In this document: one piece after another, positions 1 to 20,000 of the stretch | Numbering within the stretch: position 1 is the first letter of the stretch | Layout of the letters: each line of letters opens with the position of its first letter | Assembly (NCBI GenBank): GCA_036630325.1 | Contig: CP142726.1 | Location: 1,604,403 to 1,624,402, forward strand | Direction of reading: 5' to 3' | Source: Vairimorpha necatrix | Taxonomy: Eukaryota | Length of the DNA: 20,000 bases | Position numbers and translations under genes: made by a program | Notes under the pieces: model-generated | Told to the model about the DNA's origin: nothing | The model's database searches: none | Seen by the model: only the letters and a program-made list of their open reading frames with translations

Positions 1-298
1 GATATATTTTATTTAATATTATAACCTATTTATGTTGTTCTAACTTTTGTTCTAATTATTATGTGTTTCAATTTAAAACTAAAATTTTTATTTAATATAA
101 CCTAGTTTTTACTGTTAAAACTCTATCATTGTGTGTGTTCTAATTTCAATTTCCCAATTCAACATTTATGTTTTAACCTGAATCTAGAACGGCGATCATA
201 GTCTTGTGCCTGTAAAAAACTTGTTCCAACTTAATTTTATTTTAAAATTCATCAATTATCGCTTGACTGCAGTTGGTTAGTAACCCTGCTTACATTGT

Positions 299-503
299 CT
301 AGATAATACATGCATTCACTAGTTAAAATGTTCATTTTAATAGTGAGTAAACACTTTGACTAGAGGGAGCTCGTGAATGTATACATTCACTAGGTAATGT
401 GTTCATTTCAGTTACAATGAATACTTTAACTACAAATCTTAGTGAATGTATACATTCACTAGGTAATGTATACATTGCCTGGAATGTACACTTTGACTGT
501 AAC
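299..503. repeat. Degenerate tandem array of ~20-bp palindromic units (core AATGTATACATT, often joined at CTAG)
   Basis: Perfect palindromes GTGAATGTATACATTCAC (373-390) and TAGTGAATGTATACATTCACTA (440-461); near-palindrome AGGTAATGTATACATTGCCT (461-480); exact 28-bp direct repeat at 373-400 and 442-469; more degenerate units at 299-360 and 479-503. Confidence 0.7.
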
Positions 504-3500
504 ATATATATAAAATAAAATAAAATTTATATGATACTAGAAATTCAAAATGCCAACAAAATTTATAAATTTTTACTAAGTTATGTGTAGATATGTTAAG
601 ATGCCAAGTGCTTAATATAAATATACATAATATTCTAAGATATAAAAATCTTGGTAATAAGTTCATATTTATTGCAACAATCATATGTATCTATGTATAA
701 AAGAATGAAATACACCGAATCAATTACATGATATATTTTATTCGTACAGACTTAACATAATGAACAAAAACGTATTTTAATAATATAACATAAGATAATT
801 TTAAGTTTCTGAGTTATGATAATTTCGATTAATTACTAAAGAAAAAATATTCCCTATGTAAAAAGAATAAACAAATTATTTAGAACCCAATTGATAAAAA
901 TTAAGTATTGTATTCAATTAAATAATTGTTCTCTTTGGCAATATAATAGTTAAAATCTAAAAACAAAATTAGAGAAAATTAAAAAATAAAATTCACGTTT
1001 CATTTATCCTCTAAGAATAGAAAGTCAGTGTGAATATACTATTAACTTTATTCTATAGGACTGATATAGTAATTTTGACTTACAAAACCAAAAATAGAAG
1101 ACAAATAATCAGTTATTTAAGATAGTAAAATGAACAAAAGTTGAAAAATAAAGGAAATATAAAGTCAGAAACACGAGATTATAATTATTTGTGCATTTGA
1201 ATATAAATAAAATCATTTTTTACAACATATATACAATAGAGTGATATAATTCCGCAATTTAATATTTGATATGTTTAGATTTCATTACGTTAACATTTTT
1301 TTTTAAATTATATAATCTTAACAATGAAAAATTTATATTTTATGATACTATATTTTTTGAATATTCCAGAGGTTAAAATATTTTTCAAATATGGGGTGAA
1401 TGATCATTTAAATATAACATTTCTAAAAAATAATTAAATTGATATATTTTTGAATTACACCCCCTAATAGATATACTTTTTGTTTTCATATAATTAGACT
1501 ATCTAAATCATACACAAATCAAATAGAGAAGAGAACGATATATTGTTTAGAAAAGAAAACAAATAAAAAGATTGTAGATCTTAAAATAGTTATAAAACTG
1601 TACACTAAATCAAAATTATTCTTCACATTAGATATTATACCATGGATTTAATAATTGCAGACATAAATTTTGACTGAACCTTCCTGGGATTGATTTGGTT
1701 GCAAATTAAATTTTTATAAAAAATGCACATATTTTATTTATGTTCTATAAAAAAAGGAAAAGGACTTTATATACACATTATATTACTTTAATAATATTTT
1801 GACACAAAATAAAGTATGCAGGAAACAAATTTACTCGTTTGTTCCTTATTTCTAATTTTTAAAACCAAATTCCGTACACTAATTTTAATTTGGCAGAAAA
1901 ACAAATCCCTAGATGAAAGATTATCGAAATGTCGTTTCTTGCAATAAAAATTTTGATGTTTTGTCCAAGACATTCATAATATTAAGGGCGAAAATATATA
2001 TATGCGAGAAATTAATATTTACAAAATAAAAGAATCAATTTCTTTGAAAAAACAGTCCATTATTTATTTTAGATGAATCAATAGCTTCTTCCCCGTGTAA
2101 AGGACAAGGTTTTTATATCATTTTTAAAATAGTAATACTGTCATTATTATTTGTTCGTTCCGTAAATTCGAACCAAATCTTTATCGTATAACAAAACACA
2201 AGTTTAATGTTTGATAATTTTTGAATTTTAGATTGTATTTAGTACTGTTTATTTAATAGAGATGTATTGTTTTAATAAATATCAGTTGTAGATAAAATCT
2301 TGACAAGAAATAAATATGAAAATTACCTTATAAAACCTTAATGAAATGCGCTTAATACGTACGATTCAAGTCGAATTAATATAATCAACTTGTTATAAGT
2401 TTAAAACATTATGTTAAGCCGCATGATTCAATGTATCTGTGTAAAATCAAAAATAAGATAAATTCTTAGTAAAAAAATACATTATGTAAAATATAATAAT
2501 TTTAAGTTTTTATATTATTCTATTTTTATTTGAAAATGACAAGAAACGTATCGACAATATAAATATAATACAAGGATCAAAATGATACAAATTTAACACA
2601 CTCTTTAAAAATCAAAAATAACTTGGACTTTATACATAAAACTATCTATGTAGAAATTTTTAAGTTAATAAATTTGAATATAAAACTTGTATCAGCAATA
2701 TATATAGAGTGGATAAAAAAAATATTATGTTCAAAACTAAATAACAAACCGTTTTCTGATACAATTTTATAATAAATAGTGTAATATAAGGAAAATTCTC
2801 ATATAGAGTATTAATAAACTGAAACCGAATTTTCTATATAAATTAGAGATGATTATTGTATAAAAAATAATAAGTAATTTTGTATAAAGTAGCTTTTTAT
2901 AATAAATTTTAAAATTATATTTTTTGTAGTAGACACTGAATATGTAGAACATTTTAAAAATATTTATGAGATAAAAATGATATCCAGTCCTTTATATTTA
3001 AGATTAACGTCACTAGAAAAAACATTAAAACCCATCGTTTTTGTACGATGACTTTCTAATTTCGGGTTTTTTGAAAAAAATTTTCGTTCATCGCACGAAG
3101 AAGTTTATTTGGAAATCATTAAAAAATTTTATATAACACTGAGCTTCAAAAAATACAAAAATAGAACTTTACTATTAATGAACAACTTCACTTTCAACTA
3201 GAAATAAAATTGATGTTTAAATCGACCGTGTTTTAAAAAATAGGCCAGTTTTTTAATAACAAACTCGATGCAGTGTTTAATGAAATTTGTTAATGGTGAA
3301 TTAACGACTAGAAGAATTTATCTAGGATCATCTTTTTTTCTTTTATACGATTCTTTATCCCCATTTTCCAAAATTCGAATAACTGGTGATCAAAGAAGTT
3401 TGTAGAAAGCAGGATCGAATTTTAGAAATGTAAAAAGTCGCGTAAAAGATTCATGTAATGATAAGTGACATTTGTGTAAGTATTATGTACATGGTTTTTC

Positions 3501-3844
3501 AATTTAGAATTTTTTTTAAGTATTAGTTTTTTTATCAGCAGTGAATCTTGACGATGTAATATAAAGATAGATAAAAACATATGTTCTGAAAAGAAAAAAT
3601 TTTACAATATGTACGTTCTTTAGTTTGTATGAAAAATCAAATTTTGTTTTAATAATAAATTACCTATGCTAAACGTATGAGAACAAATTCATTGTTAACA
3701 AAATTCTAAGTAATAGTTTTCTCTTATCTTTCATTGAAAAAAATAAAAATTAGGAAGAGATTAATATTATGAGAAAAGTAGAGAATGTCTAGAAATATTA
3801 TTTAATGAAGGATCATTAACATTTACGAAAATTTTATAACAATC

Positions 3845-4207
3845 TGTGGTGCGAGCTGCCTTCCTGGCCGCTCGGCTTGTTTAAATAGTTTACGTTTGTA
3901 TAATTTTTATTGACTCTTTTAGTTTTCATACCTTGGTGAAGGGCTAGAAATTCATCCTTTTATGTTTTATTTCTTATAAATGTCAAGCATGTCAGTTATT
4001 GGAGGGAAAGCTGGCCTCTTGTACAGCTTTCCATATTCTGACATTATTTACTAGATTAGACATTTTCTTATTCGTCATTTGTTTGTTGACGAAAACGTAT
4101 TTGTTTACGTCTATGACTCGGCTGTAATTGAGATATGACAGACGAGGGGTTCGAGTATTAGAGTCTCACTGGGCTTGTCATAGGGACAGGAAGGATGTCG
4201 TGTGACA
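3845..4207 (-). mobile_element. Solo LTR (363 bp) with 5-bp TSD CAATC
   Basis: Begins TGTGGTGCGA and ends TCGTGTGACA (TGT..ACA). CAATC at 3840-3844 and 4208-4212. Subterminal inverted match CCTTCCTG/CAGGAAGG. Locally GC-richer than flanks. AATAAA on the minus strand (TTTATT at 3906-3911) suggests minus orientation, which is tentative. Confidence 0.8.
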
Positions 4208-4627
4208 CAATCGAAAAGTGAAATTATTATATAAGAAATTTAGCATATAAATAAATTTGAAAGTTTGTGCATACGGTAATTGATTGCAATTACATATCTG
4301 TCATATAAAGTATATATTGACACTGATTCAGGCGAAGTTCAATATCAGCTTTGAAAGTCTTTATTAGTTAACATTCAACTTTAGATAATATATTAGTAAT
4401 AAATAGATACCAAATTATCATATAAACTGTTTACAGTTATAATTAAGATGAATAAGTAGAACAAAATATTTCAAATGTAAAGTTATAAATAATAAGAACA
4501 TTATATAAATACCAAATTAAAGACTGTCATTCTATTATAATGAATAATTAAATGAGTTTAATAATTAAAAATATTATAAAAACGTATATATGATATAAAT
4601 ACTATAAATAAATAAGAATGATTATTT

Positions 4628-4650
4628 TATATATATATATATATATATAT
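4628..4650. repeat. (TA)n microsatellite
   Basis: 23 bp of uninterrupted TA alternation. Confidence 0.9.
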
Positions 4651-5494
4651 CAGTAAAAATCTAGAATTTTGTATAAATAAAAATATATTTAGAAAAAACA
4701 TGTTGGCCATGTAAAAAAGGTGTGTAGCAATTTGGCTGTTTGTAATGATTTTTACTTTTTTAGAGATAAAGATAATTAAAACAACGGATTATATTACAAT
4801 AAATACTTAATGAAGGATAAATCATCAGATCAAGCCTTGTAGAATTCAAAAATATTTTTTATCGATGTAAGGTTCATATTAATCTTGTCTATTATATTTA
4901 ATGAAACTAATCTTTTTGTAATATTTAATTTATATATTTTGGGATCTGAAATTATCTTCATTTAAGGAAAATATTTGAAAAAAAATATTTTAAATATATT
5001 ATAAATAAAAATTATATATTAAAAATTTAAATAAGATAGTTTATAGAGTATAATAAAGAAGATATATATACATTTGAATAAAAATATAATATAATATTAA
5101 TACTATTATTTTTGTGTTATATAAAATAAAAAATAGGTTAAACTATCAAATACTCTAAGAAAGTAGAAGCGTACATAAAGATGATTAACAGAGAAGACAA
5201 ACGAAATCATTTCAATAGACTACCGAAAAGATGTGAAGGTTCCGATTTGAAAAGGACTAAGAACCGAGAAGCTGCCCACAAACAGGAGATGCTAACGCGG
5301 AACCTATTCAGAATATACTAGAAATATAAAACACCGTTAGCATATACTGAAATAATTTATTTTTTATAATAGAAAACATAATAGTAATTATGTTGTATTT
5401 ATTTGTAAAGATTATTTATATATATATTATAACAATGGTATTTATTATGTTATTTTCTGAAATAAACTATATTTTTTTATGTTAAATATGAATT

Positions 5495-5779
5495 TGTGGT
5501 ATTATTTACCACATTATTATATTTTCCCTCCAAATGAATTTTCTAAAATTTGTTTTTCAATAAATATTTTCTTTTTTTTTTACCCCACCAAAATATGTCA
5601 AGAAGAACAGAGGAGTCTAGAAATCAGCAGTATCAATCAATGCATCCCCAGAAGAGGGAAGATAAAGCCCAAGGAGGCAGATTTAATAGTACAACTTGCA
5701 TTATAATAAAACTTTAATACCCGGGAGAAGCATTATAGAATGCTATCTGAGGAGCAGTCATCTCCCGGGTAATACCTCA
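5495..5779 (+). repeat. 5' LTR (285 bp) of the Gag-only element
   Basis: About 21 differences from 7187-7470 by hand alignment (~93% identity). TG..CA ends. AATAAA at 5705-5710. Confidence 0.93.
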
Positions 5780-7167
5780 ATGAGCTCATTAGTATTTGAA
5801 AAAAGTAGTAATACTGAGAAACAAAATGATGATGAAGCATATACCACATTTGACAAAACCATAGAAGGAACTACAATAGTTGTTAAAGAAAAAATCGAAA
5901 AATGTAAAACGAGACTTCACCATAAAGCATCTCAAGCTGTTTGAAGAGCTAGGAACGGCCAATAAATGGACTGATAAGCAGGTGGGACTCATCTACCATT
6001 CTTTGATTGAAGATTCTAAGGTGAAAGATAAGCTAAATAAGATAAGCTTTAAAAAATAAAAAAAAGAACTACTAGAATTTAGATATTCAAAAAATGATGT
6101 AGCTTTATTATTAACAGAGATGGAAACTGTAAACCCGGCAAATTATAGAAGTATGGCAGATTATTATGAGAAAATGAAGTCGATGATTGAAATATACGGA
6201 CTATCTATGAACCTATCGAAAAAGGAATTTGATGTTAGATTGGAACAGATTTTTGAGAGAGGATTAGGCAGATCAACTGCCATTGAAGTTTTAAAATCAG
6301 GAATGAAAACAAGGGAATGAACGAGCTATTAAAATATTCACAAGATCTGGAAGAAATGATTATTTTACAGGCGAAACTGGAAGGGAGACTTTATCATAAT
6401 TTATATCTAAAAAAAAGTATTATGAAAGACCTGAAGAAACAGGAAGATACTTTAAAAGTGATAAGTGGTGCTCTATACATCGAGCAAGATCACATGATAC
6501 ACGAGATTGTCGTCTACGAAAACCAAAAGAAAACGATAGAGAAATAAAAAAGAAGGTAAATCGTTAATGATAAAAAAAATTCCTAACGATGAATTGGATG
6601 AAAAACATAAAAAAACCGACTGCCTTTTAATTCAGAAACAAAAAGAAAATAAAATCATCAATAAACAAAAATGTATAAATGAAAGAATAAATAATATAGA
6701 TAATTGTATTAAAAGAAATTAGAATAAAAATAGACAATCTTCCAGCTAAAGTCTTAACTAATATAGTCGACTTTGTGAAAAGGACAGGAAATACGATACC
6801 ATCAGATGATATATATTCAAAAAATATTAAAATAAATAACAAAGAAAGAAGCAAGCCTCCTGATAAAATTAAAGATAACCATCAACATGTAAAAGATTTG
6901 GCAACATCTAAATATGATGATAGTTATTAGAATAAAAATAAATTAAATCTTAGAAACTTTCAGAAACATTGCCTCAAAAATAAAATGCAGCAGATGCCAT
7001 TTAGCATATGTAGATATGGAGTAAACGGTGAATCTGAGAAGCATAAATATGATAAGTTGAATTCATACCTTGATTTGAGGTTTAAAATATCTAATTTAGC
7101 TATTACTAGGAAACGGCGGAAAGAACTATTTGATGATTTCGGAGGAATCCGTATTCTAATTTGCTGA
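5780..7167 (+). pseudogene. gag: Frameshifted gag (capsid-like region + CHHC zinc knuckle) followed by an unassigned C-terminal reading frame
   Basis: ATG at 5780 (MSSLVFEK..TTIVVKEKIEKC). After a frameshift, LKLFEELGTANKWTDKQ (5931-5981), resembling the Ty3/gypsy capsid FE..N.W motif. ..SMADYYEKMK..EQIFERGL in ORF 6120-6320. WCSIHRARSHDTRDC (C-X2-H-X4-H-X4-C, Cys to Cys 6469-6510) in a frame the ORF track misses. A frame from ~6706 to 7167 is open except for one stop. Confidence 0.75.
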
Positions 7168-7173
7168 CCCTTT

Positions 7174-7186
7174 AGAGAAGGTAGTA
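7174..7186 (+). promoter_or_regulatory. Polypurine tract (degenerate) of the Gag-only element
   Basis: AGAGAAGGTAGTA directly precedes the TG of the 3' LTR at 7187. Confidence 0.65.
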
Positions 7187-7470
7187 TGTGGTATTATTTA
7201 CCACATTATTATAATTTCCTCCAAATGAATTTTCTAGAATTTATTTTTCTATAAATATTTTCTTTTTATTTTTACCCCCACCAAAATATGTCAAGAAGAA
7301 CAGAGGAGTCTATAAATCAGCAGTATCAATCACTGCATCCCCAGAAGAGGAAGATAAAGCCAAAGGAGGCAGATTTAATAATACAACTTTAATTATAATA
7401 AAACTTTAATACCCGGGAGAAGCATTATAGAATGCTATCTAAGGAACGGCCAACTCCCGGTAATACCTCA
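7187..7470 (+). repeat. 3' LTR (284 bp) of the Gag-only element
   Basis: Direct repeat of 5495-5779. TATA-like TATAAA at 7311. Ends in CA and is followed by the TSD GAATT. Confidence 0.93.
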
Positions 7471-7547
7471 GAATTAAACATAAAAACAAGAAATAAATAT
7501 ATGACAAATTAATAATTTTGTTTTCTTTATGGAGTATCTACACATCT

Positions 7548-7900
7548 TATGATTTGGCATGTAGCCTGATCCGAAGTTGAAGTGATGAGTCTAAACTTAC
7601 ATAATGATTTATATTATTTGTTTGTTTTGCTGCTCATCGGAATTGTAGGTCAGATGTAAATTCCGTTTAAATAGTCAATCAGATTAACTGTCAAACTCTT
7701 TAAGATGTAATCAAACAAACATGAAACCGAAGTTCTACTGAATTAGTAGTACTTCATGTGACATGCACTTGTCTTACTTTTAGTTTGTGAATGTCAAACA
7801 TGTCTAATGTTTATTTACAATACTCTTAGACGTTTGACAGTACCAATAATCATTGTATAATTATAAACAAGATTCGTCAGTGCAGGTCTGCAGCCTCACA
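7548..7900. mobile_element. Probable solo LTR (353 bp) with 5-bp TSD CATCT
   Basis: CATCT at 7543-7547 and 7901-7905. Right end TCACA; left end TATGA, one change from TGTGA. GC-richer than flanks. Internal inverted repeat TGTCAAAC(AT)GTCTAA / TTAGACGTTTGACA (~7792-7839). Confidence 0.55.
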
Positions 7901-10900
7901 CATCTGAAGAAAATATTAATATTGTTATTTTGAAAATTATTTCTTGCACAATTTAGTACATTTTTTTTAGAGGTTGCCAACGTATGTATCTGTATAATTA
8001 ATATTTTAAGAAATTTAGATTTATTTGTCTTTTCATATGAGTACGTAAGTATATAATTTGCTGTATATAAAATAATTATGAAACGCATTATGTGCAGAAT
8101 CGACATAAAAATAAAAAATTGAAGTAAAGTTAAACATATTAATTCGGCTTTGGACAAATACGTTAATTAAACGCAATATTTACTTCATTTTGTAAGATAA
8201 AAACATATTTTTCAAAACAAGTAAATTAGATTCTTTCAAAAAGAAATTAAAACACAATCATTGACTGATTTAATTACAAGAAATTTCTGACACTATATAT
8301 TAATCATTTAAAACATATATTTAAGTCTAACAATATATTTGTTGAATGAATTAGGACATATTTTTATACAAGAAATAAGATTATAAATCTATCTAAAATA
8401 ATTTAGGTATATGCATAAAAGTATTTAAATAAATGTTAAAATACGCAAACTTGATAAACTAAATACAAAGGTTTCATGGAAGTGTGTAGTAACGATTACA
8501 TCATAAGGACAGTTGTCGAAGTTTACTCTGTCAAATATCCACTAACAACGTTCCAACACACCAATAATACAACAAAAAATACAAAATTTACAATATGTTT
8601 ATCCATGCAAAATAATTAACCTTTAACCTACGTGGCTAAAAATTATTACAATAAAAATAAAATATAAAAAACAAGTTTGTATATGAAGGGCAAGAAATAT
8701 CTATGAAGCAAGTACACAATCATAAAGTTAATAATTCAAAATTTTTAAAGCCTTCTAACTTAAAAGTAGCAAAGTTTTATCTATGAAGAACAAAGAAATA
8801 AAGGAAAAATAAGAACGAGCATATTGGTTGAAAGAAAAAAATATTTTTAAAACGAAATCTACAATCTATCTAAATTTACAACATAGGTAATAACAAGATA
8901 ATTTAAATTTGATCTTTCGCCTTTTCTTTTGGTATAAGGACGAAAGCAAATAAATAGAATAACTTTTACGATCAAAAATAGAATGTGTAAGAAGTGATAC
9001 AAATAATATTCATTTATTATAACTAGATAGTAAAGGGATTATAAAGAAAAGATATACATATGATTCCTACAAATTGCTTAGTAAGATAAACACATAAGAA
9101 TTGAAAATAAAGATATACGTTCAAGATATTAGATGAAATATAATTTTCTTTTATATTAAAATCTACGCCAAGATAAACAAAAATAAATCCAAATATTGCA
9201 TATAGTATAATTTAAATACAATTAAAACAAGCAATGAAGTTTTTAAATTATCTAGAACATAACAGACGATTTCATAAATAAAAATTATACCAAAAAATCA
9301 ACTATATTATCTTTATATTTGACCAATATGTACACTTTATTAAGTATAATAATTACTAATGGTAAAAAAACGAAAACAAATATTATATTTAAATTTTAAA
9401 CTAATTTCGATTAACCTCGTATATGACATTTTTTTGGTTTATAGAATTCTAAAGAAGTTTCAGTTATAAAACATTGTAGACTTTTGAAATCGAAGTTGGT
9501 AAAAAACAAATGTCACAAATATAAATTTGTTTTTTACAATCATATTGACCACACAAAAATAGAAATTATGACCAAAAATTCTATAAAATTATTAATACTT
9601 TTATCATATTTATAAAAATATATTATTTTATTATTAATTTCAAATAATTAAGAACAAATCAATTCAAAAATCTATCGGTTAAATATTTGATAATCGCTCT
9701 TTTATTATATATATACTTTCTAAATCCGTTAAGTATAATATTTTTTTATAATAATTTGATCAAAATTTAAGTATGAAAATTGAAATATTAAAAAGAGGTC
9801 ATTTACGAAAGAAAAAAAAATTCAAATTCAATCAACAATATCGTAAAATTATATATTCATTTAGAAATCATTTATTTAATCTATAATTAGAAGAATTGAA
9901 GAAAATTATATTAAATTAACAATATAAAATAAAACCTATTCATTGTAAAATCGTTCAGCAACAGTAAAAAGAATTTTACTTAGAAACGACATTTATGTAA
10001 TTGATTTTAAAAATCCTAGGGAACCCCTACTTAAATATATTTTCCATATTATAATATAATAAGAAATAATAAGTAAATTTTCAATTATGAATAATTAAAT
10101 AAAAACAATAGCACATACAATTTAATACAAGGTTGTTGTGAATAAAACATTTTCGAGATTTTGAAAAAGGCGTCGCATTATTAAAAAAAATAAAACCAAA
10201 AATACGGAGCGAATAGAAATGCATATAAATCCAATACAGTTAATAACAACGCAAGAATAAATTATGAAATGCTATATTTTTTAAAAAATCTTATATACCA
10301 TAGTTACACGCAAACTAAAATAGAATTCAAAATTTATATATTTGAGCAGAAAATAATTTAAATTAATATAAAGAGTAATAACATAAAATAAAATGATTAA
10401 CACTTGTTAAATTTATATTAAAAAACTTACTTAAAACATGTTAATACAAGATAAAGTTTTTTCAATAATAATACTATAAAATATTTCACCTGGACGTTTT
10501 CAAGATTATTTACAAAAAAATAAAAGAAAAGTCTAAAAGTTAGAATTGGATATATTAAATCTTAACAATATGGTAATACTTCGAAACAAATAAGAATCTT
10601 AGAAAAAACACCTAAATAATATTTATATATCGTTAGTCTCAAAAAATAAAAGTATTTTTAAGAAATTAAATTTTTAGAATATATAATAATTCATTTACAC
10701 ATATTTAAATCTAAAATTAAAATTTTATTTATTTAGTAAAAAAATGAAATATTATTAGTTAAAAGACTTAACTTAAAAATTTTTCTTAAAAGTAAAAAAT
10801 TTCGTTCTTTGACTTATAATTATCAGACATTTAAACTTTTTAATCAAAAATTTAAATATAACCGTTAAAGTCAATATTTTTTAAGAAAAATTGAAATTTA

Positions 10901-13761
10901 ATTTTGATATTATATATTGTCTATAGTTCAATAAAATGCGTTAGATTAAATCTAAGTATGAAAAGGTCAAGAAATTTTTTACTTAATATAAATTTTATAA
11001 TACACAAGGATTTATCTACAAGTAAAATAAACATAATGGCAATAAAAATCTTTGAAAAAACTATTATATTTCGAAATGCAATTTCAATAAAGATAATCGA
11101 AATTAATATTACAAAAATAATTTTTAAAAGAAAATATATTGAAAGTAGTAGGATAGCTTTTTTTAAAAAATACATATTGGACTAAAACTCGTTTTGAAAA
11201 GAAATATTTTCTTTTAGAATAGTTAATAAAAGCATTCAAACTAAACGTTTGAATAATTTTAGATAAGTAGAAAGAAGAAATTTTTCATACAATTAAATTT
11301 TCACGACTAATTAATCTAGAAGTCTTAAACACTAAAACGAAAATAATATTTTTTGATCATTAAATTGAATTTTATATTTTCAAATTTTGTTCATAATAAT
11401 ACACATACGACTGATTCTAATAAGTAATAGTTTTAGAACATATAACGACATTTTTTTTTTCAAAAATAATATATCAATCGAACATTTAAAATGCAATATA
11501 TTACACAAACATTATTAAACATGATGATATATACAACCTACACGAAAACATATGATCAATAACGAAAAATTTATAAAAATATTAATAAAATATTTAAAAT
11601 TTTTATATGTTTGAATTTCAAAAGAAACCATATCACGGAGGGTTTTAAAAATTGTAGATTAAAGGTATAAATCACAATCAATATTTCAAAAAATTTTATA
11701 AATGATTTAAATCATTCTTATAGTATAACATTCAATACTATTTATCGCAAGGAAGCATTGGAAAGTTCTTCATATGTAAAAACTCATTTTTTTATGCTTA
11801 ACTTAAGTTTTTAAAATTATTATAAAAATGTACATATATAAACCAAATAATATCATGAAAATTTAGAGTATCAAAGAAACATAAAGACATACGACGAAAA
11901 TAAAATATAAACATCTATAGAGAAACACAACGAACGACATTTCATTCTGTTATCATTTATTACAACAGTATTTTGTTATTTTTGGTCATAATCTGTAAAA
12001 ATATTATAAAATAAAATATAAAAATTATTTCAATGGAAATAATGATAAATATCTGAGAAATAAATCTAATAATGGTCAGAAAACATATTAAATACATTTC
12101 GAATAATAAGATAATAAATATATATACAAATTGTAAATTTATAAACAAAACTAGGCTGGAAATGAATTTCGTATTTCTTCATGTGAATTTTTCTAGTAAA
12201 TATCATAAATTCCAAGTATTTATTTTTAATACTATAATTATGATAAACATACAATCAAAATAAAAACAGAATTAGTAAATTTTTTGAAAAATATCTTACA
12301 CTAACCGAAGATTTTAAAAATATAATATAATAAGAGCTAATAAGGGTTAATAAAAAGTATAAACAAAACCCAATGCAACTAATTAATAGATATTTATATA
12401 AAATTAAGGATAATATAATGTAAGAGCGTATAAATTAAAAAAACAAATCTTATCTGTAATAATGACAGAAAATATTTTTATGCATAAACCTAATTACATA
12501 TTAAACATAGATGCGGATGACGATTTCTAATAATTATTAAATAATATTTAATTCAAATATTAATTGATAAAAAAAAATATAATAATAAATTGATAAATTA
12601 AATTTTAATTATTAAAACAACAAAATCTTTTTGAATTTTAATTGGAGCAAATATTTTGAATCGTTAATTGAAATCAATCTGATGATTTAATTAAAAATTA
12701 AAATTTTAAAATAATCCATGAATTGGTTTTCTCATAAAAAAAAACATTTTAACTTAACACATTAATAAAACATTTTCATAGGGAATGTTAAGTTACTTCT
12801 AAACTATCCGCAAATTTTTATGCAATAATTTAGAATATACAACATATCTGAATCGCAAAAAATTTATCAATATTAACTTGTTATCAAATATATCAAACTA
12901 GTTCTCTTCATAATTAAAATTATATGAAGATCAATCAAGATTTAAATCCAACGGTTATAAAAGAAAATATATAAGTATAAACAAAATATATCTAAGGAAT
13001 TATGATCACATTATCAAATATATATCTTATAGAATGTTTTTTTTAATTTTCCAATATTTTCACTCCCTCTTATTTTAAAATATTATATTTTCTACCGTAA
13101 AAAATTGAATCCCAAAGAAAACATAAAAAATAGACACAATAACATTTGTAATTATAAAAGACTTCCTGGACAGTTAGGCAAATACATATATAAATAGAAT
13201 TGTACATTAGAAGAGGAAGCATCCCTATGCAGCAGCCAAGTAGATATAAATATTCATAAAAAAATTCAAAAAAAAATTAAATCATATTTATTTAGATAAA
13301 TATAAATTACATTCATTGATCTATTTTAATATCACATAATTTTATAGTGAAATATTTAAATGTAATTAGTTATTCGTATTGTATTTTAAAATCAAACATG
13401 GAATTTAGTCCTTAATGTTTTCAAATTATTACGTCCTTTTATTTTCTTGGAAGAGTGATTCAATTTTATTATTCAAAGTGGTACAATGAGCTTTCCTAAA
13501 GAGTATAATCTCCTGTGTCTGTATATATGCGTTAGAACAGCTTTCGAAATTTAAGTTATTTGCATAATATCCCTAAAATATTATTTTTTTTTAGTATAAT
13601 ACTAATATTTCATGTAAGAAAAATGTTAAAACACAAAATTGACTTTTTTTTACAATAATATATATTACAAATTAAAGAAGTAATTTCATACTTTTACAAT
13701 ATATTATTACATAAATTTATTCGCAGAATTACACCAAAAATACTTTGTGTTTTAATTATAA

Positions 13762-13799
13762 TGTTAAAGTTGAACCTCCTATTAAATAAATGAATAACA
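13762..13799 (+). repeat. 5' mini-LTR (38 bp)
   Basis: TGTTAAAGTTGAACCTCCTATTAAATAAATGAATAACA; TGTTA..TAACA inverted ends; 34 of 39 aligned positions identical to 16888-16926; contains AATAAA. Confidence 0.88.
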
Positions 13800-14246
13800 T
13801 GGCAAACACAAAATACAAAAGGGTAACAAGTGAGACTTGTGTTTAAGAGAAGAGAAAATTGCTAAAAGAAGCTCAGAGAGTAGAAGCAATCATCTGAATG
13901 CAGAAAGATGTAAAAGATGTGACAACGAAGCAGTCGATAAAACAAGTAAGTTCTGAACTTTTGAATTTTATTAATGATAAAAATTTAATCAGTATGATTA
14001 ATTGGAATGATATTAATGATGAAATTGATAAATTAGTTGTTGAAGAGTAAGAGAATAAGAACAAAGAAAAATAAAAAGCAGAGAACTAGATGATATGGTA
14101 AAGGTTATGAAAGAAAAAATAAAAAGAAGATTAAAGGATAACTGACTAGGACTGTAGCAGTGCCAGGAAGAAACTTTCAATATCAAAGACGAGAAGAAAA
14201 ACATTTTTTTATATGTGGAAGAATTATACATATAGCTAGAGGTTGT
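13799..14246 (+). pseudogene. gag: Short decayed gag-like region ending in a CCHC zinc knuckle
   Basis: ATG at 13799 overlaps the LTR end (MANTKYKRVTSETCV*). Interrupted charged/helical frames follow. FFICGRIIHIARGC at 14205-14246 is C-X2-C-X4-H-X4-C with the first Cys codon read as TTT (one change from TGT). Confidence 0.65.
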
Positions 14247-14489
14247 ATGGAGCGTAAAGGAAGACAGGAAGAGAATAATGAAAATATAAGTGTTAAATAT
14301 TTTGGCATTCGTGATAATAGTAAAATGAAAATATTAAGTGGAAATGATTTTAAATTGAGACTACCAGTGGAGGTAGAAAGAGAGAACTCAAGAAACCGTT
14401 TTTATGTAAAAATACAAACCAAGATAAAAGAAGAAAAAATATTAATAAATATGAAGAATTGGAAGGAAAATTTTCGAGGTATTGTGAAA

Positions 14490-15300
14490 AGACGAAGGGA
14501 AAATAAAATACTTAACAGGGAGAAAATGTTCTATCAAAACAAAACAATGAGTGAAAGTAGTTTAAAAGGAACAAAATATTCTTATAAACTCCGATAAAAG
14601 TTAGAAAAGTATATTAATTATTAAAAAGTATAGGTATTATCAGAAAAAAAAAAGAACGAATGGAGAAGCCTTATAAAAACTATAGAAAAACCAAATGGTG
14701 AAGTACAATTTAGAAGCAATTTGATGGCTTTAAACGAACTGGTGCAAAAAGATCCGTATGAATTGCCATTGATTAGAGACATTATTAGGGCAACGCAAGG
14801 TTCTAATGTATTTATGGTTATAGAACTAAAGGAAGGATTCTATCATATAGAAATTAAGAAAGCTCAAAAGCATAAGACAGCTTTTGAGATAAATGTTAGA
14901 GTTTACAAAAAGAATAGCATGGTAATGGGATTTAAAAATCTTCCTATTTTATGTAAAAAGTGATGAACGGAGTTTTAGATAAGTTTAGAGGCAAGAGTGT
15001 TGAGATGTACATGGATGATATTATTATTCATGCAAGAGATAGTAATATACACGAAATTTTTTTAAAACAAGTTATTCGAAAATTTAACGAATGTGGATTA
15101 AAAAAAACTTAAAAAAAAATACAATATAAAGGAGAAGTATAACTACTAGATGTAACAATTAACGGAGAAGACATTAAACCGACAAAAATGAAAAACAAGA
15201 GACATTAAAATACAGAAGGCCTAACAACATGAAAGATTTTAGAAGATTTAAGGGACGGGCAGGCTGGTTAAGAGATTTTATTTCCCATTATGCTTATCGG
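14490..15300 (+). pseudogene. pol: Reverse transcriptase (frameshifts and stops); boundaries approximate
   Basis: GIIRK..EWRSLIKTIEKPNGEVQFRSNLMALNELVQKDPYELPLIRDII..VIELKEGFYHIEI..KHKTAF..MVMGFKN; YMDD at 15008-15019 (VEMYMDDIIIH); LRRF..GRAGW thumb region near 15235-15270. Confidence 0.93.
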
Positions 15301-15431
15301 TCAGCACGTCTTACAGAAGCACTAAATAAGATAGTAAATATTTATGATCCGAAAAAATGTAAAGAGCTTTTATGGATATCAAAGAGGGTTTAAAGGATGT
15401 GAAAAAATTAAAAATAGAAGATAGTTAAAAA

Positions 15432-15790
15432 ATGTATAGAGTAAGAACGAATGCATGCGATACGGGAATTAAAGCCATACTTCTGCAAGAAGACAAGGCA
15501 GATAAGTGGAATCCGATACAATGGCATCATAAATGTTAACACCAACATATAAAAAGTATACGATTAGTGAAAAGGAGATGATGGCAGCGTTATTTGGATT
15601 AAAGAAATTCGAGTCAGATTTGTGAGAAAGAAAATTATATTAAATGTTAGATCATTAAGCACTGCCCGAGATTAGAAACAACCCGTTTACAATAATAACA
15701 TAATTAAGAGATGGATAGAATATATACAAGAGTTCGATTTCATAAAGAATATGTAAAAGGAAGAAAAATGACGGATGTGGATGCAAAGAG
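15432..15790 (+). pseudogene. pol: RNase H domain (decayed); boundaries approximate
   Basis: RVRTNACDTGIKAILLQE from 15438 (compare the Ty3/gypsy TDAS..GIGAVLLQ motif); YTISEKEM at 15557-15580; LDH*AL; RWIEYIQEFDF..YVKG....DVDA. Confidence 0.88.
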
Positions 15791-15976
15791 AAGAAAATTT
15801 AAAAATAACGAAGTGAAAGAAAGCTTCGAAAGAGAGAAACGGACCCAAAAACAAAGGAAAGGGAAAGAAATAAAGCGCATGGTTAAAAGAGAAGGTAAAA
15901 ACTATTTGAAGTTCTTAACAAAAGAAATTAAAGAACTACTACACAAAGAACTAAGAGAGACAGAAATTTCAGAGTT

Positions 15977-16887
15977 CATGAGAAATTAAATCATCGTGAA
16001 GTGAAAAAGACCTTATTATAAGTAAAAACAAAGATTGTACTGACCAGGTATTGGACCAGAAAACCACAACGCTAAAAAATTATGGAGTATGTAGCATTAA
16101 TAACAGAAAAACGACCGGAGGTTGCAATTTTGTAACAAAATTTAAGAAATTAGAAAAAGTAGCTTTAGACGTAATGAATATTGCGAAAAAAAATACGTGC
16201 TATTAGGGATTGACTACTTAGAAGAAGAGTATAGGGCGCAAAGATGGAAAACAAAGGAAGTGATGTTATTACTAAATTTTTAGATAAATGGATAAATGAA
16301 ATGAATGCCCAGATGATATATTACGGATAACGGTAAAGAATTTGTCAGATAGAAGTTTGTACCTCCGTGTATCGAAAACGGAATTATACAACGGAAAGTA
16401 GGTTTAGTAGCTCATAGGTTTTATTGAAGAATAGAACGATGTATTTACACAATAAGGGAATCGATGATCAAACAAAAAGAAGGAAATGCAGAGGAAAAAC
16501 TAGAACAAGCTGTAAGAACCTATAATAACACTCTACACACAGCATTACAAGTACAACAATGAAAGCATGTAAAGAACAAGGAAAAGAAGTCTTTATTGAA
16601 AACGATAAAAAGTGTGTGTATGCAAGTAATTTTAACAAAGGCATAGAGAAAACTTTAGAGTAGATCAGGCTGTGAGAATTGCAAGATAAAAAACTTGGTT
16701 GAATAGATGAAAAGTATGAAAGGAAGATTTACAAGTGTTGGAGAAATAATGGAAAGTGTGAGAAAAATTCTTATATTGTAAAGACTGATAGCGGAAGATA
16801 CATTAAAAAACGACATTATGACCTAAAATATTATAAAAATGGAAAATTAGAAGCTTGTAATGTGAGACTAGCCGTTTGGAGGGGGGA
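15977..16887 (+). pseudogene. pol: Integrase (HHCC remnant + DDE core), no chromodomain seen
   Basis: HEKLNHR at 15977; VALDVM with D at 16168; LGIDY; TDNGKEF with D at 16326; RIER with E at 16434, giving D-35-E spacing; YNNTLHTAL; C-terminus NSYIVKTDSGRYIKKRHYDLK runs on toward the PPT. Confidence 0.9.
16878..16887 (+). promoter_or_regulatory. Polypurine tract
   Basis: GGAGGGGGGA abuts the TG at 16888. Confidence 0.9.
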
Positions 16888-16926
16888 TGTTAGGGTTGAA
16901 CTTTCCTATTAAATAAATGTATAACA
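16888..16926 (+). repeat. 3' mini-LTR (39 bp)
   Basis: TGTTAGGGTTGAACTTTCCTATTAAATAAATGTATAACA, followed by the TSD TATAA. Confidence 0.88.
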
Positions 16927-17085
16927 TATAATCATTAATCTGAAAAAAAATACTTGAATAAATAGATATTTAGTTAAAATTTATCAACAAATTTTCAATT
17001 TTTATTTAGTTTAGTTACATATTGATTAAATTGAATTTTTTTTAAACAAAAGATTAAGGAAGTTTTGAGGGCTAAAAGCTTACGT

Positions 17086-20000
17086 TTAGGTAGGGTAGGT
17101 AGGTTAGGTAGGTTAGGTTAGGTTAGGTAGGTTAGGTAGGTAGGTTAGGTAGGTAGGTAGGTTAGGTAGGTAGGTTAGGTAGGTTAGGTTAGGTTAGGTA
17201 GGTTAGGTAGGTTAGGTAGGTAGGTTAGGTAGGTTAGGTGTAGGTAGGTGTTAGGTTAGGTAGGTTAGGTAGGTAGGTTAGGTAGGTTAGGTAGGTAGGT
17301 TAGGTTAGGTTAGGTGTAGGTAGGTGTTAGGTTAGGTAGGTTAGGTAGGTAGGTTAGGTAGGGTTAGGTAGGTTAGGTAGTTAGGTTAGGTTAGGTTAGC
17401 TAGGTTAGGTAGGTTAGGTAGGTAGGTTAGGTAGTAGGTAGGTAGGTAAGGTTAGGTTAGGTAGGTTAGGTAGTAGGTTAGGTTAGGTAGGTAGGTTAGG
17501 TTAGGTTAGGGTTAGGTAGGTAGGTTAGGTTAGGTAGGTTAGGTAGGTAGGTAGGTGGTGGTTAGGAGGTTAGGTAGGTAGGTAGGTTAGGTAGGTGGTG
17601 GTTAGGTAGGGTTAGGTTAGGTAGGTTAGGTAGGTAGAGGTTAGGTAGGTAGGTGGTAGGTTAGGTTGGTGGTGGTAGGTTAGGTAGGTAGGTTAGGTAG
17701 GTTAGGTAGGTTAGGTAGGTAGGTTAGGTAGGTAGGTGGTTAGGTAGGTTAGGTAGGTAGGTTAGGTAGGGTAGGTAGGTAGGGTAGGTTAGGTAGGTTA
17801 GGTAGGTTAGGTAGGTAGGGTAGGTAGGGTTAGGTAGGGTAGGTAGGTAGGTTAAGGTAGGTAGGTTAGGTAGGTAGGTAGGTAGGTAGGTAGGTAGGGT
17901 AGGTAGGGTAGGTTAGGTAGGTAGGTAGGAGGTTAGGTAGGTTAGGTAGGTAGGTAGGTAGGTTAGGTTAGGTAGGTAGGTTAGGTAGGTAGGTAGGGTA
18001 GGTAGGGTAGGTAGGTTAGGTAGGTTAGGTAGGTAGGTAGGTAGGTTAGGTAGGTTAGGTAGGTAGGTTAGGTTAGGTAGGTAGGTTAGGTAGGTAGGTT
18101 AGGTAGTAGGTAGGTTAGGTGTTAGGTAGGTTAGGTTAGGTAGGTAGGTTAGGTTAGTAGGTTAGGTAGGTTAGGTAGGTAGGTTAGGTAGGTAGGTTAG
18201 GTAGGTAGGTTAGGTTAGGTAGGTAGGTTAGGTAGGTAGGTTAGGTTAGGTAGGTAGGTAGGTTAGGTTAGGTAGGTTAGGTAGGTAGGTAGGTAGGTAG
18301 GTTAGGTAGGTAGGTAGGTAGGTTAGGTAGGTTAGGTAGGTTAGGTAGGTAGGTAGGTTAGGTAGGTTAGGTAGGTTAGGTAGGTAGGTAGGTGTAGGTA
18401 GGTAGGTAGTAGGTAGGTAGGTTAGGTAGGTTAGGTTAGGTAGGTAGGTAGGTAGGTTAGGTAGGTTAGGTAGGTAGGTAGGTAGGTTAGGTAGGTAGGT
18501 AGGTTAGGTAGGTTAGGTAGGTTAGGTAGGTAGGTAGGTAGGTTAGGTAGGTAGGTAGGTAGGTTAGGTAGGTAGGTAGGTAGGTTAGGTAGGTTAGGTA
18601 GGTAGGTAGGTAGGTTAGGTAGGTAGGTAGGTTAGGTTAGGTTAGGTAGGTTAGGTAGGTAGGTAGGTTAGGTAGGTTAGGTAGGTAGGTAGGTAGGTTA
18701 GGTAGGTAGGTAGGTAGGTTAGGTTAGGTAGGTAGGTAGGTTAGGTTAGGTAGGTAGGTTAGGTAGGTAGGTAGGTTAGGTAGGTTAGGTAGGTAGGTTA
18801 GGTTAGGTAGGTTAGGTAGGTTAGGTTAGGTAGGTTAGGTAGGTAGGTTAGGTAGGTTAGGTAGGTTAGGTTAGGTTAGGTAGGTAGGTTAGGTTAGGTA
18901 GGTTAGGTAGGTAGGTTAGGTAGGTAGGTAGGTTAGGTTAGGTAGGTTAGGTAGGTAGGTAGGTTAGGTAGGTAGGTAGGTTAGGTTAGGTTAGGTAGGT
19001 TAGGTAGGTAGGTTAGGTAGGTAGGTAGGTTAGGTTAGGTAGGTTAGGTAGGTTAGGTAGGTTAGGTAGGTTAGGTAGGTTAGGTTAGGTTAGGTAGGTA
19101 GGTAGGTAGGTTAGGTAGGTAGGTTAGGTAGGTTAGGTAGGTAGGTAGGTTAGGTAGGTAGTAGGTTAGGTAGGTTAGGTAGGTTAGGTAGGTAGGTAGG
19201 TTAGGTAGGTAGGTTAGGTAGGTAGGTTAGGTAGGTTAGGTAGGTTAGGTAGGTTAGGTAGGTTAGGTAGGTAGGTTAGGTTAGGTAGGTTAGGTAGGTT
19301 AGGTAGGTTAGGTAGGTTAGGTTAGGTAGGTAGGTAGGTTAGGTAGGTTAGGTAGGTAGGTTAGGTTAGGTAGGTTAGGTAGGTAGGTTAGGTAGGTAGG
19401 TTAGGTAGGTTAGGTAGGTTAGGTAGGTTAGGTAGGTTAGGTAGGTTAGGTAGGTTAGGTAGGTAGGTAGGTTAGGTAGGTTAGGTAGGTAGGTAGGTTA
19501 GGTAGGTAGGTTAGGTAGGTAGGTAGGTAGGTAGGTTAGGTAGGTTAGGTAGGTAGGTAGGTTAGGTAGGTAGGTAGGTTAGGTAGGTTAGGTAGGTAGG
19601 TTAGGTAGGTAGGGTAGGTAGGTAGGTAGGTTAGGTAGGTAGGTTAGGTAGGTAGGTAGGTAGGTTAGGTAGGTTAGGTAGGTAGGTTAGGTTAGGTTAG
19701 GTAGGTTAGGTAGGTAGGTTAGGTAGGTAGGTTAGGTAGGTAGGTAGGTAGGTTAGGTAGGTTAGGTAGGTAGGTTAGGTAGGTAGGTAGGTTAGGTAGG
19801 TAGGTAGGTAGGTTAGGTAGGTAGGTTAGGTAGGTAGGTAGGTTAGGTTAGGTTAGGTTAGGTAGGTAGGTAGGTTAGGTTAGGTAGGTTAGGTAGGTAG
19901 GTAGGTTAGGTAGGTTAGGTAGGTTAGGTAGGTAGGTTAGGTAGGTAGGTTAGGTAGGTTAGGTAGGTTAGGTAGGTAGGTAGGTTAGGTAGGTAGGTAG
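17086..20000 (+). repeat. Telomeric repeat array of mixed TTAGG and TAGG units (T1-2AGG)
   Basis: 2,915 bp to the window end made almost entirely of TTAGG and TAGG. The G-rich strand runs 5'->3' toward the end, as expected for a right chromosome end. Variant units are concentrated proximally. Confidence 0.95.

Follow-up and report, generated by a model that had tools for sequence, protein, structure and literature searches.

A decayed microsporidian Ty3/gypsy-type retrotransposon with terminal repeats of 38 and 39 bp that appear native to its family

In the textbook view, a long terminal repeat (LTR) must accommodate a promoter, a strand-transfer repeat and a poly(A) signal. An insertion bounded by far smaller repeats lies at 13762-16926 of a 20,000-nucleotide stretch of the Vairimorpha necatrix genome (assembly GCA_036630325.1, contig CP142726.1, positions 1,604,403 to 1,624,402 of the forward strand), referred to here as the window. 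Coordinates below are window positions, and the copy in the window, 13757-16931, is called W. Judged from its sequence and that of its relatives, the insertion is very probably an old, dead copy of an ultra-compact microsporidian Ty3/gypsy-type LTR retrotransposon whose LTRs are natively 38-39 bp long. The retroelement DNA that entered here through a 5-bp staggered cut carried terminal repeats of 38-39 bp, and the relatives of the element share this design.

The ends of W emerge from direct reading of 13500-17200. On the left the sequence runs TATAA / TGTTAAAGTTGAACCTCCTATTAAATAAATGAATAACA (13762-13799, 38 nt) / TGGCAAACAC, and on the right GGAGGGGGGA / TGTTAGGGTTGAACTTTCCTATTAAATAAATGTATAACA (16888-16926, 39 nt) / TATAA, with both repeats on the + strand. 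The left repeat begins TGTTAAAG and finishes GAATAACA, and the right repeat begins TGTTAGGG and finishes GTATAACA. Global alignment of the two gives 34 identical columns out of 39, with four mismatches, one indel and a score of 29, which none of the 16,783 other 39-mers of window positions 1-17000 reaches (best 17). Self-blastn recovers the pair at 87.8% identity over 41 nt (E 2e-7) and finds no second copy of the element within the window, while a repeat-finding program gave just the 24-nt core (13777-13800 and 16904-16927, 96%). The target-site duplication TATAA occupies 13757-13761 and, in identical form, 16927-16931 (no strand); at the base composition of the window, two given 5-mers match by chance with p = 0.0034. 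Directly after the 5' LTR, TGG opens a putative primer-binding site (PBS), TGGCAAACACAA (13800-13811, + strand), and a polypurine tract (PPT), GGAGGGGGGA (16878-16887, + strand), is flush with the 3' LTR. The 5' mini-LTR contains the C-rich motif CCTCC, an AATAAA at LTR positions 24-29 and an in-frame ATG at 29-31, and its final A opens a second ATG that spans the junction with the PBS. The 3' mini-LTR likewise holds AATAAA, together with the stop codon TAA of the open reading frame (ORF) at 16910-16912. A preliminary description of this DNA had reported 38/39-bp direct repeats with TGTTA..TAACA ends, TATAA flush outside both, TGG inside the left and a PPT inside the right; all of these are present, at exactly the coordinates it gave.

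Between the repeats lies a decayed single polyprotein gene (13799-16912, + strand) that encoded a gag zinc knuckle, reverse transcriptase (RT), RNase H and integrase and ends with the TAA inside the 3' LTR. Under the standard code its ORFs are fragments only, and the one ORF of at least 100 aa in the whole 20-kb window sits inside the element. In a tblastn search, residues 1-998 of P0005, an intact relative of 1002 aa, are colinear with 13799-16828, so W is full length, with nothing missing between the coding region and the repeats; the 9 high-scoring segment pairs (HSPs) span all three forward frames and contain 40 stops. Residue 1 of P0005 falls on 13799, where the left repeat ends. The final open frame, 16703-16912, enters the 3' LTR and reads WRGDVRVELSY-stop. 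The zinc knuckle survives as a CX2CX4HX4C remnant, FFICGRIIHIARGC, with its first Cys lost (14205-14246, + strand, in the ORF 14142-14597); Pfam finds zf-CCHC in 9 of 13 relatives. The RT (14634-15112, + strand) is split over two reading frames, retains YMDD and matches Pfam RVT_1 with E 3.1e-7 at 14634-14963 and 6.3e-6 at 14957-15112. The RNase H region has approximate limits of 15350-15741 (+ strand; tblastn HSPs over P0005 residues 497-627, Pfam RT_RNaseH). Integrase, also with approximate limits (15950-16828, + strand), corresponds to P0005 residues 629-998 by tblastn and gives a weak rve_3 match (E 0.009 at 16428-16562); its parts are a zinc-binding region, a DDE core and a C-terminal region ending KRHYDLK. 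W is therefore complete in length but heavily decayed, with many frameshifts, and 13% divergence between its LTRs is in line with this. A different genetic code behind the stops was considered and dropped, since RT pieces in different frames point to decay rather than recoding. None of the 416 tblastn HSPs marks further retroelement remains of the window outside 13700-17000.

The case that such short repeats are a property of the family is carried by relatives, namely metagenome contigs (L001 and others), relatives' proteins (P0005 and others) and contigs of two sequencing runs, of which X1 contains parts of the window exactly and X2 represents a different organism. A protein search with the RT piece returned 37 proteins, the named ones coming from the microsporidia Nosema granulosis and Enteropsectra breve, and the best named matches overall come from Nosema granulosis, Vairimorpha necatrix and Enteropsectra breve. 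With full-length P0005 as query, 107 proteins were returned at E<=1e-50; among them a close family of at least 40% identity is sharply set apart from ordinary Ty3/gypsy proteins. The named matches of this search are on contigs 1.3-1.5 Mb long. The clearest relative is L001, a 4.7-kb metagenome contig of 35% G+C with a complete, decayed copy laid out as TTATA / 39-nt LTR / TGGCACCCAGTC ... AAGGCGGGGA / 39-nt LTR / TTATA. Its LTRs are identical at 38 of 39 positions and have TG..CA ends, with TGG after the 5' LTR, GGCGGGGA before the 3' LTR and a flush TTATA duplication. The kind of copy to which the preliminary description had looked for support, with LTRs of ~39 bp and a different duplication, was therefore encountered once, in another genome.

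Further boundaries agree with this arrangement. The end of L006 reads ...GGAGGAGGGGA / TGTTGGGTTATTAGCCCCTATTAAATAAATGACTAACA / TGAAA, a 38-nt 3' LTR akin to that of W, and similarity stops at the LTR end. A 5' LTR in L008 (47 nt, then TGGCAACACCG) and a 3' LTR in L026 (46 nt, after GAGGGGGGA) are the same LTR on two contigs, and their similarity runs from TGTT to CACA and not past either end, in two unrelated flanks. Of the 29 close relatives that reach 930 aa and 40% identity, 20 sit on contigs of only 3035-3333 bp that exceed the ORF by 25-422 nt, and in 15 cases by at most 100 nt, which is supportive rather than decisive. In X2, read depth is 0 in three bins over 13400-13768, rises to at least 836 with the bin that begins at 13769, and across the element amounts to hundreds to thousands. 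Across W's family, LTR length ranges from 38 to 49 bp. From these boundaries, the short contigs and the left edge in X2, the mini-LTR appears to be native to the family and not a product of erosion, and the preliminary view that the repeats are not remnants of longer LTRs is supported.

Three contigs of related but different families form a graded series of short LTRs. L011 has identical 58-bp LTRs and an intact 1088-aa ORF that covers 3267 of its 3364 bp; L021 has identical 75-bp LTRs, also with an intact ORF; and L017 has LTRs of 176/172 bp. The question whether other copies carry ordinary LTRs of more than 100 bp has a divided answer: none of the copies inspected in the close family of W do, and the more distant relatives have 58, 75 and ~175 bp.

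In the anatomy of the family, the coding sequence overlaps both LTRs. In all LTRs examined (W, L001, L006, L008, L026, L011, L021, L017) the repeat starts with TGT, ends with ACA and contains AATAAA; every 5' LTR examined is followed by TGG, and every 3' LTR follows a purine run. In W, the ATG that opens the polyprotein is built from the LTR's final A and the first two bases (TG) of the PBS, so that the putative PBS doubles as coding sequence for an N-terminus, M-A-N-T, which matches P0005 and P0015. The same CA/TGG = ATG junction is found in L001, L008, L011, L017 and L021. Many relatives have a second in-frame ATG inside the LTR, often 9-18 nt upstream of the junction ATG, and the N-termini that begin there include MNINVHMA, MIKYNHMA and MKIDIHMA; L008 starts CCG-ATG-ATT-GGA-AAC-GAT-CAC-A/TG-GCA. 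Met-A, Met-G or Met-V occurs among the first 10 residues of 22 of 29 relatives, a loose pattern that is consistent with the TGG of the PBS making the next codon begin with G and is not a test of it.

At the other end of the gene, the ORF stop in relatives falls 15-25 nt into the 3' LTR. In 10 of 29 relatives the C-terminus passes through a Gly-rich PPT into TGTT (...GGML.., ...GDVV.., ...GGC-stop), and these C-termini arise from reading GGGGGGATGTT in three different frames. Such frame-independent conservation at the junction of PPT and LTR points to a constraint on nucleotides rather than on protein, as expected of a PPT and an integrase end, and the ...GGGGA/TGTT junction is shared by W, L001, L004, L006 and L026. 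Intact relatives of 934-1188 aa read from zinc knuckle through integrase in one frame, and the pol order RT - RNase H - integrase is seen in W by tblastn and in P0005, P0009 and P0021 by Pfam. The order within the mini-LTR is TGTT integrase end, ORF stop, AT-rich sequence with AATAAA, C-rich motif, start codon and ACA integrase end. All family LTRs examined have CCC or CCTCC along with AATAAA. In L004 and L026 the CCC is directly adjacent to the in-LTR ATG (order AATAAA - CCC - ATG), CCG takes that place in L008, and the order in L006 is CCCC - TATTAAATAA - ATG.

Several observations weigh against native mini-LTRs or against parts of this anatomy. The short contigs of 3.0-3.3 kb could be assembler cuts at repeat borders. 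The claim that homology ends with the element holds on the left, where X2 depth is 0, and does not clearly hold on the right, where X2 depth is 116.8 in the bin 16967-17080. The left flank is multi-copy in X1, with 9 contigs at 13509 that all have G where the window has T, and the X1 copies may be segmental duplicates of one insertion. A target-site duplication is present in two of the five complete copies inspected (W and L001) and in none of L011, L021 and L017; chimeric flanks are a plausible cause, these being short-read contigs of seemingly young multi-copy families. The LTR of W has CCTCC/TTTCC and not a clean CCC, which is read here as a decayed form of the motif. The PBS begins TGGC, TGGT or TGGG among relatives and varies beyond, and no primer tRNA was matched. 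The window contains no tRNA genes or Rfam families and hence no primer candidate, and as for Tf1-type self-priming, an inspection by eye, not a formal test, showed no sequence reverse-complementary to the PBS in the LTRs of L001 and L021.

The alternative that survives best concerns autonomy and not the repeats. At E<=1, no retropepsin model matches any of the 13 family proteins, and the stretch between zinc knuckle and RT (W ~14250-14630) lacks an invariant Asp. In the same search L021, L015 and L019 score above the cutoff and L017 scores weakly, and these positive controls share their metagenome bin (G001) with L006. Gag is reduced to ~150 residues with one zinc knuckle, the sole gag-family match that Pfam gives in the N-terminal ~150 residues. 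The missing protease, the reduced gag and the presence of protease-encoding relatives in the same bin all favour the idea that the ~3.1-kb family is non-autonomous and moves only with co-resident relatives that encode a protease and a fuller gag. This is nevertheless unlikely, given the long intact RT/RNase H/integrase ORFs in many assemblies, with one cluster of 31 member sequences; the polyprotein might also stay unprocessed or be cut by a host protease.

For an element with native mini-LTRs, a compact life cycle can be proposed. Transcription would start inside the LTR, a few bases before the ATG, through tiny promoter-proximal signals typical of microsporidian genes. Polyadenylation would be directed by the AATAAA of the LTR, at or just past the LTR end; in W and L008 types the AAUAAA would fall in U3 and act only at the 3' end. 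R would then measure only ~10-25 nt and U5 would be near zero, and minus-strand transfer would use such short homology. Plus-strand synthesis would be primed at GGAGGGGGGA, and integrase would insert the DNA with a 5-bp staggered cut. For comparison, some retroviruses have R regions of ~15 nt, and in experiments ~12 nt can be enough. As the preliminary description also supposed, a very compact promoter and a short strand-transfer homology are reasonable to expect. In the part of PMC2803860 that bears on such signals, microsporidian mRNAs are described as having 5' UTRs of <7 nt, AT-rich sequence followed by a CCC-like motif immediately before the start codon, and AAUAAA near the stop. The family LTRs hold this signal set, which is the ground for proposing an LTR-internal start just before the ATG.

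It is also conceivable that the mini-LTRs are real and that the RNA template comes from tandem copies sharing one LTR, from one-LTR circles as in pararetroviruses, or from upstream host promoters. One X2 contig (loose end 13780) joins a purine-rich, PPT-like end, a 39-nt LTR and a PBS with 5' leader, and the AATAAA of the W type is so close to the LTR's end that cleavage within the repeat would have to be unusually tight. That contig is weak evidence, however, since an assembly graph with k=31 gives such a contig for any high-copy element whose LTR is barely above k. As single copies, each with two LTRs and a duplication, W and L001 are what ordinary strand transfers and integration produce, and the LTRs carry microsporidian-style promoter motifs beside the ATG, so this route to the RNA is improbable. 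Least credible of all, and largely refuted already, is the explanation that the repeats of W are eroded or coincidental remains of ordinary LTRs of at least 100 bp and that TATAA is a chance match in AT-rich DNA: W is indeed old, with 5 differences between its LTRs and 40 stops, the DNA is ~75% A+T with a 5-mer match probability that is not negligible, and more distant relatives do have longer LTRs, but duplication, PBS and PPT all abut the repeat in W, P0005 begins on the last base of the left repeat, L001 has the whole arrangement again with a different duplication, TG and CA mark the boundaries in L008/L026 and L006, 15 of 29 relatives leave only 25-100 nt of contig uncovered beside an intact ORF, and no control position reaches the match score.

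A broader proposal builds on native mini-LTRs and is held tentatively, at somewhat less than even confidence. Under it, this microsporidian Ty3/gypsy clade may comprise the smallest coding LTR retrotransposons described, ~3.1 kb long, ~97% coding and protease-less. Within their LTRs of 38-49 bp the att ends, the stop and start of the ORF, the poly(A) signal and the promoter would overlap, with an R of ~10-25 nt and no U5, and the elements would be still active in several lineages and invisible to LTR finders with a 100-bp minimum.

Comparison with known elements places W's family as an extreme variant of a known Ty3/gypsy-type element; the interest lies in the family, and the window copy itself is a fossil. 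With Ty3 and canonical Metaviridae it shares TG..CA LTR ends, a 5-bp duplication, a CCHC knuckle and the RT-RNase H-integrase order; a putative PBS starting with TGG and a purine run by the 3' LTR stand where such elements have their PBS and PPT. It differs from them in an ORF that overlaps both LTRs, in the lack of a detected protease and in an element length of ~3.1 kb. The Ty3 LTR measures ~340 bp. Taken as features of Metaviridae, the domain order, the TG...CA ends and a duplication of 4-6 bp (TATAA in W, TTATA in L001) are all found, whereas an element-encoded aspartic protease (0 of 13 proteins) and an LTR of ~100 bp or more (38-49 bp here) are not.

Within the phylum, Nbr elements of Nosema bombycis were reportedly described by Xu et al. 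in 2006. Elements of N. bombycis have the order gag-protease-RT-RNase H-integrase in the portion of PMC2474625 that treats them, whereas no protease was detected in W's family. The microsporidia-specific Ty3/gypsy groups of Parisot et al. 2014 resemble W's family, in the passages of that paper on these groups, in phylum, in a single gag+pol ORF and in the RT-RNase H-integrase order (PMC4202319). No LTR lengths were found in the main text of that paper, whose authors may already hold such elements (PMC4202319).

Outside the phylum, the shortest LTRs found in print are those of FRetro64 and FRetro129 (SMART) of grasses, at 76-90 bp, FRetro64 being coding; these elements share with W, as far as the relevant part of PMC3281118 describes them, very short direct repeats, TGT..ACA ends and a 5-bp duplication. 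The coding FRetro element, in that same part of the source, is a 5.2-kb Ty1/copia element, whereas W's family is a 3.1-kb Ty3/gypsy one with LTRs about half as long (PMC3281118). TRIMs, short for terminal-repeat retrotransposons in miniature, are likewise small LTR-type elements overlooked by standard finders; in the portions of the literature on them that bear on coding, TRIMs and SMART elements are non-coding and non-autonomous, whereas W's family encodes RT, RNase H and integrase. The default settings of LTRharvest are a minimum LTR of 100 bp and an exact seed of 30 nt (PMC2253517), which exclude such LTRs and bear out the earlier prediction that common LTR finders would miss the family. 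The full-text literature covered contains no description of LTRs so short or of microsporidian mini-LTRs; that scope did not extend to Repbase, to supplementary file 1 of PMC4202319 or to Xu et al. 2006, and priority is uncertain.

Additional sequence features were observed near the 3' end of the family. In all six family 3' ends (W, L001, L004, L006:2700-2713, L026 and L032), a conserved nucleotide block of the form GAGAC(T)(A)CC(C)GTCT precedes the PPT by 0-5 nt, and in W it is GAGACTAGCCGTTT (16864-16877, + strand). Relatives read the block in different frames (ETTRLEGG vs ETPSCGG), and it can form a hairpin of 4-5 bp. As a conserved hairpin the candidate was rejected, RNAalifold preferring another weak fold (-2.3 kcal/mol); the 5-pair stem upstream of the PPT is 90% paired, shows no covariation and is scored as highly by 169 of 500 shuffles. 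The string GTGAGACT from this 3' block also occurs at 13830-13837, near the 5' end. A separate arrangement, identical in two metagenome contigs, is a nested or rearranged element pair: an RNase H fragment that corresponds to P0005 residues 518-603 (L002:56-310, L003:1098-1352) stands directly upstream of a longer copy starting at residue 84.

The genomic setting of W is subtelomeric. G+C content is 17-35% up to ~17000, and 17086-20000 is an irregular TAGG/TTAGG array with its G-rich strand outward and a GC skew of 1.0, which is a telomere, 154 bp from the right duplication of the element. One Nosema species has a composite TAGG/TTAGG telomere, very low G+C and conserved subtelomeres of ~20 kb, according to the telomere-related part of PMC11592040. 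The insertion was probably copied along with its subtelomere, and the multiplicity of the left flank in X1 fits duplicated subtelomeric blocks. The ~17 kb of subtelomeric DNA contains no ORF of at least 100 aa except the one inside the element. A stretch at 5000-7500 has higher G+C, a strong A-over-T skew and a chain of ORF pieces of 76-86 aa, especially at 5461-7167 on the + strand; the ORF pieces at 5461-8166 gave no credible Pfam match, and the stretch may be another decayed gene or element.

The family also has consequences for sequence databases. Microsporidian repeat annotation probably files such elements as LTR-less "pol" genes, as the source names of the relatives suggest ("Transposon Tf2-9 polyprotein", "reverse transcriptase" and "hypothetical protein"). 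Two public records of metagenome-assembled genomes (MAGs), labelled Clostridium sp. and Turicibacter sp. (L006-L045), contain 49 and 17 matches to the family alignment, and one such ORF, P0003, stands in protein databases under a bacterial name. The many eukaryotic Ty3/gypsy contigs in both bacterial bins mean contamination by microsporidian or other eukaryotic DNA. Exact and near-exact pattern searches with the L006 and L026 LTRs in the two MAG bins returned the source copies only and no solo LTRs, and a profile scan of viral contigs with the family alignment found no relative.

For the biology of the family, the meaning of these observations depends on whether it works as proposed. If so, LTRs of 38-49 bp would set a new lower bound for LTRs, and the elements would offer a natural minimal system for the homology needed in first-strand transfer, for the size of a eukaryotic promoter and for the dispensability of an element's own protease. 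Microsporidian-style signals, if they do drive these LTRs, would explain why miniaturisation was possible in that phylum in particular.

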